In this document: piece by piece, positions 44,919 to 53,815 of the stretch | How positions within the stretch are numbered: the first letter of the stretch is position 1 | Layout of the letters: each line of letters opens with the position of its first letter | DNA from: Escherichia coli | GTDB taxonomy: Bacteria > Pseudomonadota > Gammaproteobacteria > Enterobacterales > Enterobacteriaceae | Length of the DNA: 64,000 bases | Assembly (NCBI RefSeq): GCF_016026235.1 | Contig: NZ_CP065613.1 | Strand: one strand, 5' to 3' | Position numbers and translations under genes: made by a program | The notes under the pieces: generated by a model | Told to the model about the DNA's origin: nothing | What the model saw: the letters and a program-made list of their open reading frames with translations, nothing else | The model's database searches: none

Positions 44919-45977
44919 TTATGCTTTCCACTTCAGAACACCCGAATTTCTCGCGTGCATTAAAAAACGAATCAGCAACAACAACTGACTACCGTGTTTT
45001 TCTTCAAAATCTTTTACCCCGGCGTGTAGTTCGTTATGGCATTTACGACACAGCGGAATAACAAACAAATCGTCAGCCTTTGTTCCCATCCCTCCCAGTC
45101 CATGACCAATGATGTGGTGCGGATCATCTGCCTGATTGCCACACGTCATGCATTTCTGCGTTTTTACCCAGCGCGTGTATACAGGCATCTCTTCCCGTTG
45201 TGGTTTCTGGCGCTGGAGATACTGAGCCGGAGATTCCGGATCAACGGCAATGCTGACCACCGTCTCTTCCTGTGGTGGATTCTGTTGCTGGTGGGCGTGA
45301 GGCAGCGGCGCAAGATTTTTTGTGCGCTGCTTCAGTATGCTGGTGGCGGTCTGCTCTCCCGGCACGATGTCGCTTTCACGGTACATTGAGCGGATTTTTT
45401 CCGCACGCAACCCCAGCGAACGACGTAATACCGCTTCCGGTAGCGCGTCCGCCACCTGATTGCGGACCGCCCACCAGGATAATTCAGCCAGAGATAATTC
45501 ACGCTCCTGCGTACCGCTTATTGCGTGACCGATGACGTCAATCATCCATGCTGACAGGTTTTGATGAGCAAGTTGCTCGAGTGATTCGGATGTCTGGTCA
45601 CGCAACTGGTTGTCGCAGTGCCAGCACAACACCATTGCGCCGGTACCATAACGGTGAATGACGGTTTCGCTGTGATGATAATCGCCGTGTGGCCACTGGC
45701 AGGATTTAATATGACGCAACAGCCAGTCAGACAATGCACCAGCACCACCAGCAGCACGAATCACCCGTGCGTTACTGAAAAACGGCAGCAATGTTTTGTC
45801 TTCCACTAGCGGCTGGCGAACGGCAGGAACGACCCCGGACGGCAGATTACGCATGCTTTTCGGTTCCGGCTCCACCAGTACCCGGGTATTGTGGAATACC
45901 GGCATGGATTCACGGCCTGGCTTAAGGACCACCAGCCCGAGTTCCGGAACCAGAACAGGTCGAAGTAATACCCGCAC
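44919..45977 (-). CDS. DUF968-family prophage protein
   Basis: 352 aa with C-terminal Cys/His cluster (CMTCGNQADDPHHIIGHGLGG...CRKCHNELH). Confidence 0.6.
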   Translation of the reverse strand: MRVLLRPVLVPELGLVVLKPGRESMPVFHNTRVLVEPEPKSMRNLPSGVVPAVRQPLVEDKTLLPFFSNARVIRAAGGAGALSDWLLRHIKSCQWPHGDYHHSETVIHRYGTGAMVLCWHCDNQLRDQTSESLEQLAHQNLSAWMIDVIGHAISGTQERELSLAELSWWAVRNQVADALPEAVLRRSLGLRAEKIRSMYRESDIVPGEQTATSILKQRTKNLAPLPHAHQQQNPPQEETVVSIAVDPESPAQYLQRQKPQREEMPVYTRWVKTQKCMTCGNQADDPHHIIGHGLGGMGTKADDLFVIPLCRKCHNELHAGVKDFEEKHGSQLLLLIRFLMHARNSGVLKWKA

Positions 45978-46424: not shown

Positions 46425-46580
46425 TTACTCCTCAGGTTCGTAAGCTGTGAAGACAGCGACCTCCGTCTGGCCGGTTCGGATTCGTACCTCGCAGAGGTCT
46501 TTCCTCGTTACCAGTGCCGTCACTATGACGGTTAAACAGATGACGATAAGGGCGATTAACATCGCCTTTTGCTGCTTCAT
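46425..46580 (-). CDS. hokD: Hok/Gef-family type I toxin (HokD-like)
   Basis: 51 aa MKQQKAMLIALIVICLTVIVTALVTRKDLCEVRIRTGQTEVAVFTAYEPEE; overlapping 70-aa mok-like frame 46425..46637. Confidence 0.85.
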   Translation of the reverse strand: MKQQKAMLIALIVICLTVIVTALVTRKDLCEVRIRTGQTEVAVFTAYEPEE

Positions 46581-46839
46581 AGCCTGCTTCTCCTTGCCTT
46601 TCGGCACGTAAGAGGCTAACCTACATGTGTTCAGCATGGATTGAGCCTCAGATTAATGTTAAGCGTCTTGCAGGACGCGTAATGTTAACTGGGGCTTTTC
46701 TCTATCTGCCTTTTGGTGTTCATGCCTGAGACAGATAGCCTCAAGCACCCGCAGTCATTCTACTTAACTAAGATTTCCCTGCAAACCGTTTTTGTCCGGC
46801 ACAGTAAATATCCAACTAAACCAATAGCGTTCGCTGTAT

Positions 46840-47058
46840 TTACCGCCAGTATTCAATGCACATGACCGCCATGAACACCCCTAAAAAAAGGGCATTTATA
46901 TGTCCAAACATTAATATCAAAACATCAATTTTTTCCATATACCTTGCTGTGAAGATGATGGGCATACATGATGCGAACAACCAGAACGCAACAAACAAAA
47001 ACTGCAATGCGTTTTTCATTATTCCCCCTACAATCAATGTGCAATAACATTTAAACAC
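46840..47058 (-). CDS. hypothetical small membrane protein
   Basis: 72-aa ORF with two hydrophobic helices in an AT-rich stretch. Confidence 0.3.
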   Translation of the reverse strand: MFKCYCTLIVGGIMKNALQFLFVAFWLFASCMPIIFTARYMEKIDVLILMFGHINALFLGVFMAVMCIEYWR

Positions 47059-47231: not shown

Positions 47232-47654
47232 TCAGTTGGCTGGTCGTTTAACCGACATAGTTAACCCATTAATCTGGTTGCCGGATGCTGGTGGATTTTC
47301 GCGTTTTAGTTGTTCATAAAAGTGCACAGCTTTAACCAGTTCTTCTGATGTAACCGGGACTGGTGGGGCAGTGAATAAGGCCTGAATTTCATAGTTCGGC
47401 CTGTCGTTACAATCCTCTTTTTTCGGTACATATTTCCAGTCACCAACCCACAACTCCCCCTGAGAGTCCATAACACCTTTTTTCACGTAGCGATATCGCC
47501 ACGCTATCGGCTCTGCTTCCAGCGATGCCCGTGCAATTTTGAATAACTCGCCCTCTACTCGCGCCATCCCTGAATTGGGGTGGCATTTCGTAATCGCTAT
47601 TTTTAATTTGGCTTCTTCGATTAATTGTTCTTTTGTTAATTCAGTCATTTTCAT
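47232..47654 (-). CDS. hypothetical phage protein
   Basis: 140-aa ORF in nin-equivalent region. Confidence 0.45.
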   Translation of the reverse strand: MKMTELTKEQLIEEAKLKIAITKCHPNSGMARVEGELFKIARASLEAEPIAWRYRYVKKGVMDSQGELWVGDWKYVPKKEDCNDRPNYEIQALFTAPPVPVTSEELVKAVHFYEQLKRENPPASGNQINGLTMSVKRPAN

Positions 47655-47744
47655 TACCGCCCTTTCAGGCGGCCTCCTGATGTTCTGAGGGTGCAGAAAT
47701 CCCTCCGGTTAAGGATTAAATTTTATTTGCTGTGCTAAATTTAA

Positions 47745-48200
47745 TTATTCAGTTTTTATTCCTGCTCTCAAAACAGCCTCTGCCATTCTGATATCCGGAT
47801 TTTCTGAAATCATCTTTTCCGGCGAGTCGCAATCACCACCACATTCAGTTATGCGTTCATGACCAAAACGAATTGTGGTTTTGTGCGCATTAATCATTTG
47901 TGTAAGCGCATCTGTCAATTCTGCAATGCGTTTGTCTTTAACTTCCAGCTCTTTCAGTAAAGCCAGTACGTCAGGATCGCTAACATCAACGACGGTTACG
48001 CGCGATTTCAGGTAATGCTCATCCGCAAAAGTTCGACCAGTTTTAAAATATCCATCATCCCCCTCACCTGTGCAGGCATACACAATATGCGTTCTGGAAA
48101 ATATGCGCTGTATCGACATTTCATCGCCACAAACAGGACATTCCGGCACCTGAATTGGTGAATAACGTTCACGTAATGCCTGGTAATTAGTCTTGCACAC
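47745..48200 (-). CDS. hypothetical phage protein with CxxC zinc-ribbon-like motif
   Basis: 151 aa, CPVC...C motifs, coiled-coil segment. Confidence 0.45.
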   Translation of the reverse strand: MCKTNYQALRERYSPIQVPECPVCGDEMSIQRIFSRTHIVYACTGEGDDGYFKTGRTFADEHYLKSRVTVVDVSDPDVLALLKELEVKDKRIAELTDALTQMINAHKTTIRFGHERITECGGDCDSPEKMISENPDIRMAEAVLRAGIKTE

Positions 48201-48492
48201 TGGCTGTCTCCTGAAAAATCACCGCATGCCCCAGTTTCTCCGCCAGCGCCAGTTCTGCCTTAGCGCCTGCTGACCGCTGCCAGCCTTTCAGCATGTAAAT
48301 CGCATCCACACAACGAATCATCGCCATGCAGATATCCATGTACTGCGGCTGTGTCAGCCCGTCCGGAAGTACTGCCGGGTTTAAGACGGTATGCCCTTCC
48401 CGTTTCAGTTCCTCTTCCGCATTGTGAAACGCCTCACGGTTGAAATTTTTATACCCGGTCATTGGACCGGCGATATAGACTCTCACCCTCAC
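48187..48492 (-). CDS. DUF4406 / nucleoside 2-deoxyribosyltransferase-like protein
   Basis: 101 aa, N-terminal YIAGPM motif typical of the fold. Confidence 0.55.
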   Translation of the reverse strand: MRVRVYIAGPMTGYKNFNREAFHNAEEELKREGHTVLNPAVLPDGLTQPQYMDICMAMIRCVDAIYMLKGWQRSAGAKAELALAEKLGHAVIFQETASVQD

Positions 48493-48911
48493 GCCATCAC
48501 CTCCTGAAAATTACCCTGATAAAACGACAATATGCGCTGCATAACTTCGCTCTTCCGGCACTCGCGACAGATTATGTTTAGGCGACTGTCGTAGCGACGT
48601 ATTTCTCCGTCAGGTAATGACCAGATAAGGTCCGGATCAACCGCAGATGGTTTCTTCAGCTTTGCCCTTGAGAGCTTTTTACGGGCATTTTGCCAGTCCT
48701 TACGCGCCTGTTCAGACGGGAATAACCCGTAACCAGAGTTGTATACATCGCCACTGGCAACCAGCTCTCTGGCCAGAACGCTCATCAGATATCTTGTTGC
48801 CCCAGTTTTAGCTTCCAGTTGTCGTAACGTCTCGCGCCCACTCTGGCGTACGAGTTCAAGAACCTGCCCTTTAATTTTTTCCCGCTCTTCTTGTGTAAAA
48901 ACTTTTGCCAC
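48489..48911 (-). CDS. hypothetical phage protein
   Basis: 140-aa ORF translationally coupled to downstream gene. Confidence 0.45.
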   Translation of the reverse strand: MAKVFTQEEREKIKGQVLELVRQSGRETLRQLEAKTGATRYLMSVLARELVASGDVYNSGYGLFPSEQARKDWQNARKKLSRAKLKKPSAVDPDLIWSLPDGEIRRYDSRLNIICRECRKSEVMQRILSFYQGNFQEVMA

Positions 48912-48951
48912 AAGCCCTCCTGAAAATTACCTCATGACCAGAAATTAACAC

Positions 48952-50115
48952 TTACCCCCTGAAGCCCGGCGGAATTTCGTTATCCGGTTCAGAAATATGA
49001 TTCACACAACGCTGGTTGTTCGTGCCGCTTACCGGGAGCAACCAGGGGTTCTCAAAATTCCGGTCCGGTCCAAAAAACGTCGTCGCTCGCTGAACAAATT
49101 CCGTTCCCGTTTTCCCGGTAGCCGCCAGGTATCTTGCGTAACGCCTCACGCCATCCAGCATGGCCTCTGGTGGCACCCCCTCGCGTAATCTGGCCTTCCA
49201 GGCACTGAAAGCGGATTTCTTCGGGTTTGCCCCGGCACGCAACGGGTACTCCCGCCAGACCTGTTCGAACACATCCGGATAATCCACTCGTCCCACAGAC
49301 TGCCCGGTGTTTTCCGGGACTACCCGATCGGCTTCCCGCTGAATGGCGGAATCGGCTTCAGGCTGCTGCAGTTGGTGTGATTGCTCCGGACTTGCGGTCA
49401 TCACCTGCTGCACAGCGCCCGAATCGGCTTTCAGCGCATACGCTGAATCGGCTTCCGGTGTCGTGCCTGCTGGCTGACCTGGCTCGACGGTCTGAACATC
49501 CCCCGCCTGGTTCGTGGCGATTTTTTCGCCATGAACCATAGTGTTTTTGTCCTGTTCCTGTTCTTTCTCCTGTTCCTGTTCTTGGCTTCGAAGCCCCTTT
49601 AAAGCCCCTTCGAAGCCCCTTACCGTATTTCGGTTGTTATTTCGCCTTACATCCAGATGAAAATCCGTCTTATATCTGTCATAAAACGCTGAAAGAAAAG
49701 CGTTTTCAGGTAATGACGCATATTCACTCCTGACACCTGCACAACGGTTATCGCCAGGCTTTAACTTTCCCCCAACCTGCCAGGCTGCCATTTCATGGAC
49801 CCAGACCATCTCGGAATCATGGTCATAACTGCAAAAACCCACTTCGACAGCCCTTCGAAGCCCCTTCGAAGCCCCTTCCGGACCAAGCCCGGTTTCATGA
49901 GCAAGGTACAAAACCGGCAGGTAATACAGGCCCAGCATGTTTGCGTGAGGGGATGTCATCAGGTAAAAAGCAACCACCTGCGCTTCTGCGCCTGCCTTTC
50001 TGAGTTCTTTCCCCGTTTCTCCCAGCCAGAATCGCGGGGAAACTTTTGCGTAATCACGCATGTCCACCTCATCTGGTGCCGAACCTTCCTCCGGATATAA
50101 TCTGTGATTCCCCAA
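48952..50115 (-). CDS. phage replication initiation protein (O-like), iteron-like repeats inside
   Basis: 387 aa; two clusters of 11-bp-spaced GAAGCCCCTT(C) repeats at 49586..49625 and 49845..49875; position in early right operon. Confidence 0.5.
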   Translation of the reverse strand: MGNHRLYPEEGSAPDEVDMRDYAKVSPRFWLGETGKELRKAGAEAQVVAFYLMTSPHANMLGLYYLPVLYLAHETGLGPEGASKGLRRAVEVGFCSYDHDSEMVWVHEMAAWQVGGKLKPGDNRCAGVRSEYASLPENAFLSAFYDRYKTDFHLDVRRNNNRNTVRGFEGALKGLRSQEQEQEKEQEQDKNTMVHGEKIATNQAGDVQTVEPGQPAGTTPEADSAYALKADSGAVQQVMTASPEQSHQLQQPEADSAIQREADRVVPENTGQSVGRVDYPDVFEQVWREYPLRAGANPKKSAFSAWKARLREGVPPEAMLDGVRRYARYLAATGKTGTEFVQRATTFFGPDRNFENPWLLPVSGTNNQRCVNHISEPDNEIPPGFRG

Positions 50116-50282: not shown

Positions 50283-50792
50283 TTAACGATCTTCAAAAAG
50301 AGGCTCCATCCACTCAAACCCTTCAGGGTGTCGGCGCTGTTCGCGTTCTGGTATCTCGCCATAACGCTCTCTCAGTAACTGAAGTGCGTCAGCTTTCTTT
50401 TGCTGAACTGATTTTCTTGCTTCAGCCAGCTCTGGAATCAGTGAATATCCCATCGGAGGTGTTCCGGTATCCGCCCCACGTGAACCAACAGCTACAAGCT
50501 GCACAAGACAACAGGCATGCTGGATTGACTCCCTGCTCAGAGGCTGAATGGGATCATTCTCTGCTGAAGAGATACCAAGATTTGTATAATCCTCAATAAG
50601 CCGGGCGCACGCTTCAGCATCAGCCAGTTTTTTTCTGGTTTCCTTGCGCTGTTCTCTGACGGACAAACGCCAGAGCAGCGCATTGGCTTTATGCATCAGC
50701 CACTCTGCCAGTTCCACATCAGATAAACCGCCACGCCAGATGTGTGGACTGTTTTCGTAAACGCTCAGTGTCAGTTTTTTGTCATTGGTCAT
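50283..50792 (-). CDS. hypothetical early protein
   Basis: 169 aa from ATG 50792 following ydaT-like gene; overlapping plus-strand ORF 50141..50599 is the alternative. Confidence 0.4.
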   Translation of the reverse strand: MTNDKKLTLSVYENSPHIWRGGLSDVELAEWLMHKANALLWRLSVREQRKETRKKLADAEACARLIEDYTNLGISSAENDPIQPLSRESIQHACCLVQLVAVGSRGADTGTPPMGYSLIPELAEARKSVQQKKADALQLLRERYGEIPEREQRRHPEGFEWMEPLFEDR

Positions 50793-50805
50793 ATTTATTG
50801 CCCCG

Positions 50806-51231
50806 TCAATGCACAGCCAGAGTATTTCCTGCCGGACCACCACGATTCATCTGATCGAACAGAACGATCGCTGATGCAACGAAATCATCGATATCTTTCA
50901 CCAGCTGTTCCTGCGTCTCCAGCAGTTCCCGAAAATAAACTGAACTGTGGCTGCGCATTCGGGCCACCAGCGGAGGCGGCATTGCCTTTTCGATCGCTGG
51001 TAACAACGCCTGAATTTTTTTAACAGCATCAGGGGTGTCTTTCTCTATCCAGCGGAAAATTTTCTGGGTATTGCGAGCCAGGGCTTCCGGATGGCTGTCG
51101 TCGTACAGTTCAGGGAACGTCATCCCCAGTTCGAAATAAGTCCGGGCTATCTCAGCCGCCGGAACTTTCTCACCATCAGGATATGCCCATGCATTCATCG
51201 CCATACGGATGTGCTCATGCTTGATTTTCAT
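50806..51231 (-). CDS. YdaT-like protein (Rac prophage family)
   Basis: 141 aa, N-terminus MKIKHEHI as recalled for YdaT. Confidence 0.6.
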   Translation of the reverse strand: MKIKHEHIRMAMNAWAYPDGEKVPAAEIARTYFELGMTFPELYDDSHPEALARNTQKIFRWIEKDTPDAVKKIQALLPAIEKAMPPPLVARMRSHSSVYFRELLETQEQLVKDIDDFVASAIVLFDQMNRGGPAGNTLAVH

Positions 51232-51568: not shown

Positions 51569-51602
51569 CAAAGTGATTAGCAATCTTATTAGAATTGGAT
51601 GT

Positions 51603-52103
51603 ATGAAAAGAAAATCACTGTCAGACACCGACCTCAACGCCGCCAGAAGACTGAAAGAAATCTGGATGGCAAAGAAATCTCAGTTGGGATTGACTCAGGA
51701 ACGTGCGGCGGAAATTATGGGGTTTTCAACACAAGGGGCGGTAAGTCACTACCTAAATGGTCAAACCCCACTAAACCTTGAGGCTGTTCTAAAGTTTGCT
51801 GGCTTACTGAAAGTTCCCCCTGAGTCAATCAGGCCAGACATGGCAGATTTGCTGCAAATTGCAAGGATGTATTGTCGAGAACCACAGCAAGATAACATAG
51901 TCGCATTACCAGCAGACACAGAACAAACAGAGGATGAACTACCGTTTGCCGTAGAGCCGATGGAACGAGATTTAATCCATACGTTCAGAGCTTTTCCGAA
52001 AGAAGATCAAGAACACATGCTTCAGGAGATGAAAGATAAAAAAGAATCAATGGATCGTACGGTTGCGCGGTGGTTAGCTGCACAAAAAGGCCGTCGCGCC
52101 TAA
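51603..52103 (+). CDS. XRE-family HTH repressor (RacR/PaaR2-like)
   Basis: 166 aa from ATG 51603, N-terminal HTH (LTQERAAEIMGFSTQGAVSHYL). Confidence 0.7.
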   Translation: MKRKSLSDTDLNAARRLKEIWMAKKSQLGLTQERAAEIMGFSTQGAVSHYLNGQTPLNLEAVLKFAGLLKVPPESIRPDMADLLQIARMYCREPQQDNIVALPADTEQTEDELPFAVEPMERDLIHTFRAFPKEDQEHMLQEMKDKKESMDRTVARWLAAQKGRRA

Positions 52104-53757: not shown

Positions 53758-53815
53758 TTTCTGGTGACGTTTGGCGGTATCAGTTTTACTCCGTGACTGC
53801 TCTGCCGCCCTTTTT
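53758..53815 (+). ncRNA. dicF: DicF-like sRNA
   Basis: TTTCTGGTGACGTTTGGCGGTATCAGTTTTACTCCGTGACTGCTCTGCCGCCCTTTTT matches recalled DicF; lies just upstream of dicB. Confidence 0.6.

Follow-up and report, generated by a model that had tools for sequence, protein, structure and literature searches.

Does a compact run of four small open reading frames (ORFs) in an early prophage operon encode one functional system, or has it been put together from genes that travel separately? The question is raised by a 64,000-nt stretch of Escherichia coli DNA (contig NZ_CP065613.1; hereafter the window), in which four minus-strand ORFs, numbered g1 to g4 in the order of transcription, lie between a replication gene and hok. 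Their sizes (140, 101, 151 and 140 amino acids) and their place were given exactly in the original prediction, which had been made from the DNA letters. The element that carries them appears to be a Rac-like lambdoid prophage, with g1-g4 in its early-right operon on the minus strand; from this position, one would expect their transcription, together with that of the replication genes, upon induction or infection. RefSeq annotates E. coli homologues of all four ORFs with 97-100% identity, under the names DUF977 (g1), DUF4406 (g2), ead/Ea22-like (g3) and hypothetical (g4). Because of these homologues, and because of the family matches in Pfam and PHROG, g1-g4 are real genes and not chance ORFs. 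No match to any of the four was found in NCBIfam, and PDB sequence searches with each of them returned nothing (best E 0.13-0.67). The closest complete-genome relative, with 97.1% identity over 2 kb, is a prophage adjoining potC in E. coli E200086, which also has racR and ydaT.

The distribution of the genes was followed in two samples: 5,426 complete E. coli genomes, in which the DNA of each gene was searched, and 80 viral contigs, each with a gene for a DUF4406 protein of 55-99% identity. The DNA of g1 is present in 4103 of the E. coli genomes and that of g2 in 1199, while the g3 variant of the window occurs in only 28. For g4, a full-length match (over at least 80%) was obtained in only 19 genomes, and partial matches in 2056. 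The 2-kb stretch with the whole block is colinear in only eight genomes, and all four genes come together in a single viral contig (L010). The original prediction had taken the four genes as one block, and on these counts the block does not hold. It had also considered that they might prove to be universally present nin genes with known replication roles; the frequencies of g2 and g3 are instead those of accessory genes. One could still suppose that g1-g4 form a dedicated functional cassette, the four products of which act together in a nin-region system, as the genes are closely packed, three of the four overlap and are coupled, and the identical arrangement does recur in a few E. coli genomes and one viral contig. 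However, the whole set is as rare as described, the distribution differs from gene to gene, 90 nt separate g3 from g4, and g3 and g4 are themselves assembled from shuffled modules. The distribution data largely refute the cassette, and we regard it as very improbable.

The surroundings of DUF4406 genes vary in the same samples. In the 80 viral contigs, the gene upstream of DUF4406 encodes a DUF977 protein in 23 cases, another helix-turn-helix (HTH) protein in 12, DnaB in eight, and a Dam methyltransferase or a winged HTH protein in four each; the downstream gene is Ead/Ea22-like in 22 and DUF1382 in nine, followed by many singletons. In 23 of the 35 closest viral loci, and in each of the four Salmonella loci that were looked at, a DUF977 gene lies immediately 5' of DUF4406 and overlaps it by 4 nt; in Salmonella prophages, the DUF977-DUF4406 pair comes after three different replication modules. 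In Edwardsiella prophages, DUF4406 is found in the early-left operon, between a g4-type gene and an exonuclease gene and near Ead_Ea22, Eai and integrase. An obligate DUF977-DUF4406 pair was also considered and was rejected on distribution; the upstream gene in Edwardsiella is not DUF977-like (BLASTP E 2.4) and belongs to the g4-type PHROGs. Given the separate distributions, the eight colinear genomes, the single viral contig with all four genes, the varied neighbours of DUF4406 and the modular nature of g3 and g4, the four genes are not a block. Together with the operon assignment, the coupling and the gene-by-gene readings presented below, a mosaic of four independent accessory genes in the classical lambdoid pattern, and not one system, is the probable account of g1-g4. 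The locus is an ordinary mosaic of prophage accessory genes that are already catalogued, all four being annotated in RefSeq; its arrangement is one among many shuffles in lambdoid early regions, and the locus itself matters little.

As a separate observation, three of the types to which g1-g4 belong come together again in Edwardsiella, in a different operon and genus. The order in the three loci concerned (L006, L007 and L008; approximately 3094-6978 in L006 and L007) is RdgC, Ead_Ea22, Eai, the g4-type gene, DUF4406, an Rv2179c-like exonuclease, DUF4752, a ParB-like gene and integrase.

The junctions between the genes may bear on how such a mosaic is joined. The overlap between g1 and g2 is 4 nt (GTGA) and that between g2 and g3 is 14 nt, so that the description of the ORFs as tightly packed and translationally coupled applies to g1, g2 and g3; it does not extend to g4, which is without coupling to g3 because of the 90-nt gap between them. 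The three coupled genes share a reused junction cassette, GGTRATTTTTCAGGAG(G)-N5-8-GTG, which carries the ribosome-binding site and the GTG start of each. Its core, TTTTCAGGAG, was located by sequence reading and pattern search; the 80 related loci (790 kb) contain 24 copies of it, all of them on the gene strand and nearly all immediately 5' of a GTG start. The GGTRATTTTTCAGGAG cassette is likely to be a recombination point as well, at which genes of this kind would be shuffled between phages through short homology. In the g3-g4 spacer, folding compared with shuffled sequences was not significant (z -1.38), and neither a U-tract nor a terminator call was found; no excess of promoters or terminators was detected in the region.

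Any wider value of the region lies at the level of the DUF4406 family, a very large one whose genes belong to early phage operons, close to genes for replication and DNA modification; 12,108 cluster representatives (50% identity) match at E up to 1e-3. The g2 protein matches the Pfam DUF4406 model (PF14359) with E 9.1e-38 and 129 bits against a cut-off of 22, its residues 4-93 covering profile positions 2-91 of 91. The YIAGPM motif that had been noticed in one of the ORFs occurs in g2 as MRVRVYIAGPMTGY, and the deoxyribosyltransferase-like fold proposed for the DUF4406 protein proved right. In Foldseek searches with the AlphaFold model of g2 (four strands and three helices; predicted local distance difference test score, pLDDT, 93.7), nucleoside 2-deoxyribosyltransferases (NDTs) came at the top (T. 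brucei 2a0k, E 2.8e-5, probability 1.0), followed by DNPH1, MilB, BcmB and TIR domains. The model also matches DUF1937 (PDB 1t1j, structural-genomics target APC5043), which is a different Pfam family from DUF4406 and adds no functional information. When the DUF4406 profile was compared with PDB sequences, T. brucei NDT (2.8e-5) was the only match below 1e-3. In this alignment, YIAGP of DUF4406 falls on YIAGP of the NDT, and S74-x-G-A-x-x-E80 on D-C-G-T-A-F-E; in the weak alignments with BcmB (4jen, E 0.057) and BlsM (5vto, E 0.15), the latter segment falls on S-P-G-T-H-I/V-E.

Among 72 diverse homologues of g2, G9, F22, P43, S74 and E80 are invariant, and Y5 is the consensus with Phe now and then; the invariance of S74 and E80 holds in 49 longer homologues as well. 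The catalytic residues of solved relatives are indicated by mutant entries in the PDB (Y7F, E88Q/A and D62N for NDT; Y24F and D80A for DNPH1). g2 has what is expected of an NDT-type protein, namely a flavodoxin-like fold, an N-terminal Tyr-x-x-G motif and a Glu at the nucleophile position, and the model predicts an enzyme with a minimal N-(deoxy)ribosyltransferase fold, in which Y5, S74 and E80 would be the active-site residues. In NDTs, an Asp six residues before the Glu nucleophile contacts the deoxyribose hydroxyls, whereas in DNPH1-type enzymes the Ser at -6 from this Glu is a phosphate ligand. An Asp acts as the general acid in both NDT and DNPH1; in the DNPH1-type enzymes, it is on the helix that precedes strand 3, and the partner subunit contributes a second phosphate ligand. 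By hand alignment, the general-acid position corresponds to about residue 55 of g2, where the consensus is Cys and unconserved.

Two groups of characterised enzymes may be compared with g2 on these grounds. The NDTs (EC 2.4.2.6; PF05014) resemble it in fold, in the YxAGP motif and in having a Glu nucleophile, but g2 stays below the Pfam threshold for NDTs, has Ser in place of the sugar-binding Asp, and is shorter by 25-65 residues than the NDTs that have been solved (126-165 amino acids). DNPH1/Rcl and the cytidine monophosphate (CMP) N-glycosidases MilB, BcmB and BlsM have the same Ser at -6 from Glu as g2; however, g2 has 101 residues against roughly 120-190 in these enzymes, it has no conserved counterpart of their general-acid Asp, and their sequence similarity to the DUF4406 profile is marginal (E 0.06-1). 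Taking the fold and the conserved residues of g2 as observed, we infer its chemistry, substrate and biological role as follows. g2 may be a nucleoside-5'-monophosphate N-glycosidase that works through a covalent Glu80 intermediate, a tentative assignment to which we give somewhat less than an even chance. Its substrate would be a nucleoside 5'-monophosphate or a closely related nucleotide, in which it would cleave the N-glycosidic bond, with Glu80 as the covalent nucleophile positioned by Tyr5, and with Ser74 and the GPM(T/S)G loop holding the phosphate as in DNPH1, MilB and BcmB. Such an enzyme would adjust the nucleotide pool, or cleanse it, while phage DNA is being synthesised.

Several points weigh against this account. 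The original prediction had called the function open, and the literature agrees: on DUF4406, PF14359 and DUF1937 we found incidental mentions only, no paper characterising DUF4406, and no biochemical or genetic datum on any DUF4406 protein. As nothing conserved in g2 corresponds to the general-acid Asp of NDT and DNPH1, the chemistry may be different, or g2 may do no more than bind a ligand. It is about 30-60 residues shorter than each of its characterised relatives, and the part missing from it would seem to be the C-terminal region. The closest structure, 1t1j of DUF1937, is itself uncharacterised. As regards the independence of the genes, the 4-nt overlap of DUF977 with DUF4406 in most of the closest viral loci and in the Salmonella loci means that g1 and g2 may be functionally linked to some extent.

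One alternative is that g2 is a genuine NDT, which would swap bases for salvage or supply modified deoxynucleosides for phage DNA. PHROG 355, which is matched by g2, carries an NDT annotation; NDTs lead the Foldseek matches, T. brucei NDT is the sole PDB profile match below 1e-3, and Tyr5 and Glu80 are conserved. However, g2 scores only 14.5 bits with the Pfam NDT model (PF05014; cut-off 28.8), has an invariant Ser where NDTs have the sugar-contacting Asp six residues before the nucleophile, and is shorter than every solved NDT; the general-acid Asp is unconserved, and no consistent base-modification genes neighbour DUF4406 in the viral loci. We therefore filed g2 as DUF4406 and not as NDT, on account of the Ser at -6, the PF05014 score, the unconserved general-acid position and the short length, and we consider base exchange by g2 unlikely. 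DUF4406 keeps the nucleophile Glu, the Tyr and the phosphate-type Ser; an enzyme activity established for the 101-residue g2 could annotate thousands of phage genes, and it could show whether phages edit the nucleotide pool by a DNPH1-like activity. A DUF4406 protein named from Shigella boydii is 99% identical to g2; taken with the Rfam matches outside the prophage early region, among them the Shigella small RNA CssrB, this suggests that the window may derive from Shigella or from an E. coli closely related to it.

The first gene of the run has a better-known relative. g1 matches Pfam DUF977 with E 3.2e-30 and 105 bits against a cut-off of 22, and phrog_142 ('Ren-like exclusion protein') is matched by both g1 (7e-47) and lambda Ren (1.6e-41). 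BLASTP aligned g1 with Ren over the C-terminal motif that they have in common, C(R/K)ECRxSxxMxR(I/V)L (9 of 20 residues identical, E 5e-6). In addition, both genes lie immediately downstream of replication genes, the lambda order being O-P-ren. They differ in length, g1 having 140 residues with an extra central segment and Ren 96, and Ren gives no match with the Pfam DUF977 model, which g1 does. g1 would appear to correspond to lambda Ren, as a small winged-helix protein whose gene comes straight after the replication genes. Ren is classically known for its anti-Rex function, by which lambda escapes Rex exclusion. A winged-helix fold has been assigned to DUF977 (PMC2686095), Ren and Rex interact in a two-hybrid test (bioRxiv 10.1101/2021.04.19.439022), and the DUF977 gene of Rac, ydaW, was found in a screen to block RcaT, the toxin of retron-Sen2 (bioRxiv 10.1101/2020.06.22.160242). 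For DUF977, LygF and ydaW, the literature that we searched amounts to that one fold assignment and that one screen result. The assignment of the four genes to a nin region stands as far as their position between the replication genes and Q is concerned; however, no Nin (ninB-ninI) family is among the Pfam and PHROG matches of g1-g4, and only g1 is a relative of ren. Of the four, g1 thus appears to be the only one that has a counterpart in the "nin" region of lambda, and the only one with indirect pointers to counter-defence.

In a second alternative for g2, a TIR/SLOG-like fold would make it a counter-defence enzyme or sponge that destroys or sequesters a nucleotide-derived immune signal or a molecule related to NAD, perhaps paired with the Ren-like g1. 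The anti-Rex role of Ren and its interaction with Rex, the block of RcaT by ydaW, and the 4-nt overlap of g1/g2 type in so many of the closest loci would all be in line with it. Retron-Sen2 (St85) is of type II-A1, whose effector has an NDT-like domain (PMC7736814). However, PADLOC gave no match for g2, nor for g1 and g4, and only a chance-level LmuB match for g3 (E 0.034). The numbers of genomes with g1 and g2 mean that DUF977 mostly occurs without DUF4406, and the gene before DUF4406 in other genera encodes DnaB, Dam, another HTH protein or an ea-type product. Meanwhile, the 49 longer DUF4406 proteins have no recurrent fusion partner (one HTH and one DUF551 were seen), and NDT-type enzymes fit g2 better than TIRs do, by sequence profile as well as by structure. 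A counter-defence role of g2 is therefore unlikely. The anti-defence idea of the original prediction keeps its pointers for g1, through the Ren family and ydaW, but has none for DUF4406. A broader form of it would make DUF4406 a widespread phage class of minimal NDT/TIR-like hydrolases, active in counter-defence or on the nucleotide pool, which destroy a nucleotide-derived immune signal or a toxic nucleotide made by a defence system and which form a coupled pair with Ren-like DUF977 in Escherichia and Salmonella. We regard this as a long shot, its whole basis being proteins of neighbouring fold (TIR, ThsB), the 4-nt coupling that is often seen in these two genera and the ydaW screen result.

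The third gene belongs to a known family in its N-terminal part. g3 matches Pfam Ead_Ea22 (PF13935) with E 2.2e-20 and 74.1 bits against a cut-off of 27, over residues 4-105 only, and its N-terminal 85 residues are common to proteins with many different C-termini. It begins with a Cys/His N-domain, continues with a long coiled-coil helix from about residue 76 to residue 119 and ends in a small module of helices; in the AlphaFold2 model, the pLDDT is 78.5 overall, 63-74 in the N-domain and about 85-96 in the long helix. A zinc-ribbon motif had been ascribed to one of the ORFs, and part of this stands: g3 contains one CxxC knuckle, CPVC (C21 and C24), and among its homologues C24 and C43 are invariant and C21 and H62 at least 90% conserved. 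A second CxxC is absent, however, the Pfam zinc-ribbon matches all remain below cut-off (13-18 bits against 25-28), and Foldseek with g3 gave no significant fold match (best E 1.3), zinc-ribbon proteins such as Rpb9 appearing at a probability of at most 0.14. C21, C24, C43 and H62 could form a CCCH zinc site, to judge from their conservation. We read g3 as an Ea22-type coiled-coil protein, the N-domain of which probably binds Zn. Lambda Ea22 itself is a tetrameric, pro-lysogenic protein of tripartite architecture, encoded in the exo-xis region (PMC10834534). Like lambda Ea22 and P22 Ead, g3 scores above the Pfam threshold, and it has the N-domain, coiled coil and C-terminal domain of Ea22; unlike them, it has a Cys/His N-domain and a C-terminal module outside the Pfam match, and its gene is in the early-right operon and not in the exo-xis (early-left) region.

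The fourth gene is modular as well. g4 has no Pfam match; its PHROG matches are phrog_660 (6.3e-47), phrog_5117, phrog_60 and phrog_3323, none with an assigned function. Residues 90-122 of g4 have a counterpart with 61% identity (E 3e-9) in the C-terminal part of an Ead/Ea22-like protein. g4 is a modular ea-type protein with modules common to other prophage 'ea'-type proteins, and g3 and g4 are probably modulators of host interaction or development.

The early-right operon as a whole runs in the order of divergent repressor, Cro-like gene, cII/YdaT-like gene, phrog_8304 ORF, replisome organiser, g1-g4, hok/sok, DUF968, RusA and Q-like gene (Table 1), the names RusA and Q-like being taken from the annotation of the closest relative and not from a scan of the window. 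Cro-like, cII/YdaT-like and phrog_8304 genes were recognised by family matches between the divergent repressor and the replication gene, and a phrog_1212 ORF, then the DUF968/HNH gene, follow downstream of hok/sok. In the closest complete-genome relative, the cII/YdaT-like and replication genes are just 72 nt apart; since these are the two genes that flank it, the phrog_8304 ORF of the window looks like an inserted accessory gene.

Table 1. Positions of g1-g4, of their junctions and of neighbouring features in the window
Feature	Coordinates	Strand	Description
g1	48489-48911	minus	140 aa, DUF977 protein of lambda Ren family
g2	48187-48492	minus	101 aa, DUF4406 protein
g3	47745-48200	minus	151 aa, Ead/Ea22-like protein
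g4	47232-47654	minus	140 aa (138 aa in RefSeq relatives, which start two codons later); hypothetical, phrog_660
g3-g4 spacer	47655-47744	minus	90 nt; small G+C hairpin just before the g4 start
Junction cassette GGTRATTTTTCAGGAG(G)-N5-8-GTG	48208-48926	minus	Three copies; supplies Shine-Dalgarno and GTG start of g1, g2 and g3
Cassette cores TTTTCAGGAG	48917-48926, 48501-48510, 48208-48217	minus	
Replisome-organiser gene	48952-50115	minus	phrog_1701 6e-143; upstream of g1
phrog_8304 ORF	50283-50843	minus	186 aa, 1.7e-91; between cII/YdaT-like gene and replication gene
Divergent repressor	51573-52103	plus	
DicF antisense RNA	53759-53810	plus	76.7 bits; early-left side of prophage
Small ORF	46840-47058	minus	72 aa (59 aa from first ATG), two hydrophobic stretches; between g4 and hok
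sok RNA	46575-46750	minus	Rfam, 118.9 bits
hok	46425-46637	minus	PF01848 (Hok/gef) 3e-23; downstream of g4
DUF968 protein	44919-45977	minus	352 aa, HNH-type nuclease signature (HNHc_6, 1.3e-7); directly upstream of RusA
Four tRNA genes (cluster)	43368-43674	minus	Just downstream of Q-like gene

Some of the neighbours recur in the related viral loci. The early-right operon includes a complete hok/sok type I toxin-antitoxin locus (46425-46750, minus strand), and hok often turns up as a landmark on the downstream side of DUF4406 (in 20 of the 80 loci). The small ORF between g4 and hok has no match in Pfam, PHROG, NCBIfam or PADLOC and is without annotation in the RefSeq relative, and it is kept in six of the 80 loci, each time just upstream of hok. 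The DUF968-RusA pair is found again in 17-26 of them. Rfam detected no RNA family within 47232-48911. Outside the prophage early region, its matches (5341-5430, 14635-14838 and 15595-15774) were rseX, IS009 and CssrB, the last being a chromosome-encoded Shigella small RNA, with 230 bits.

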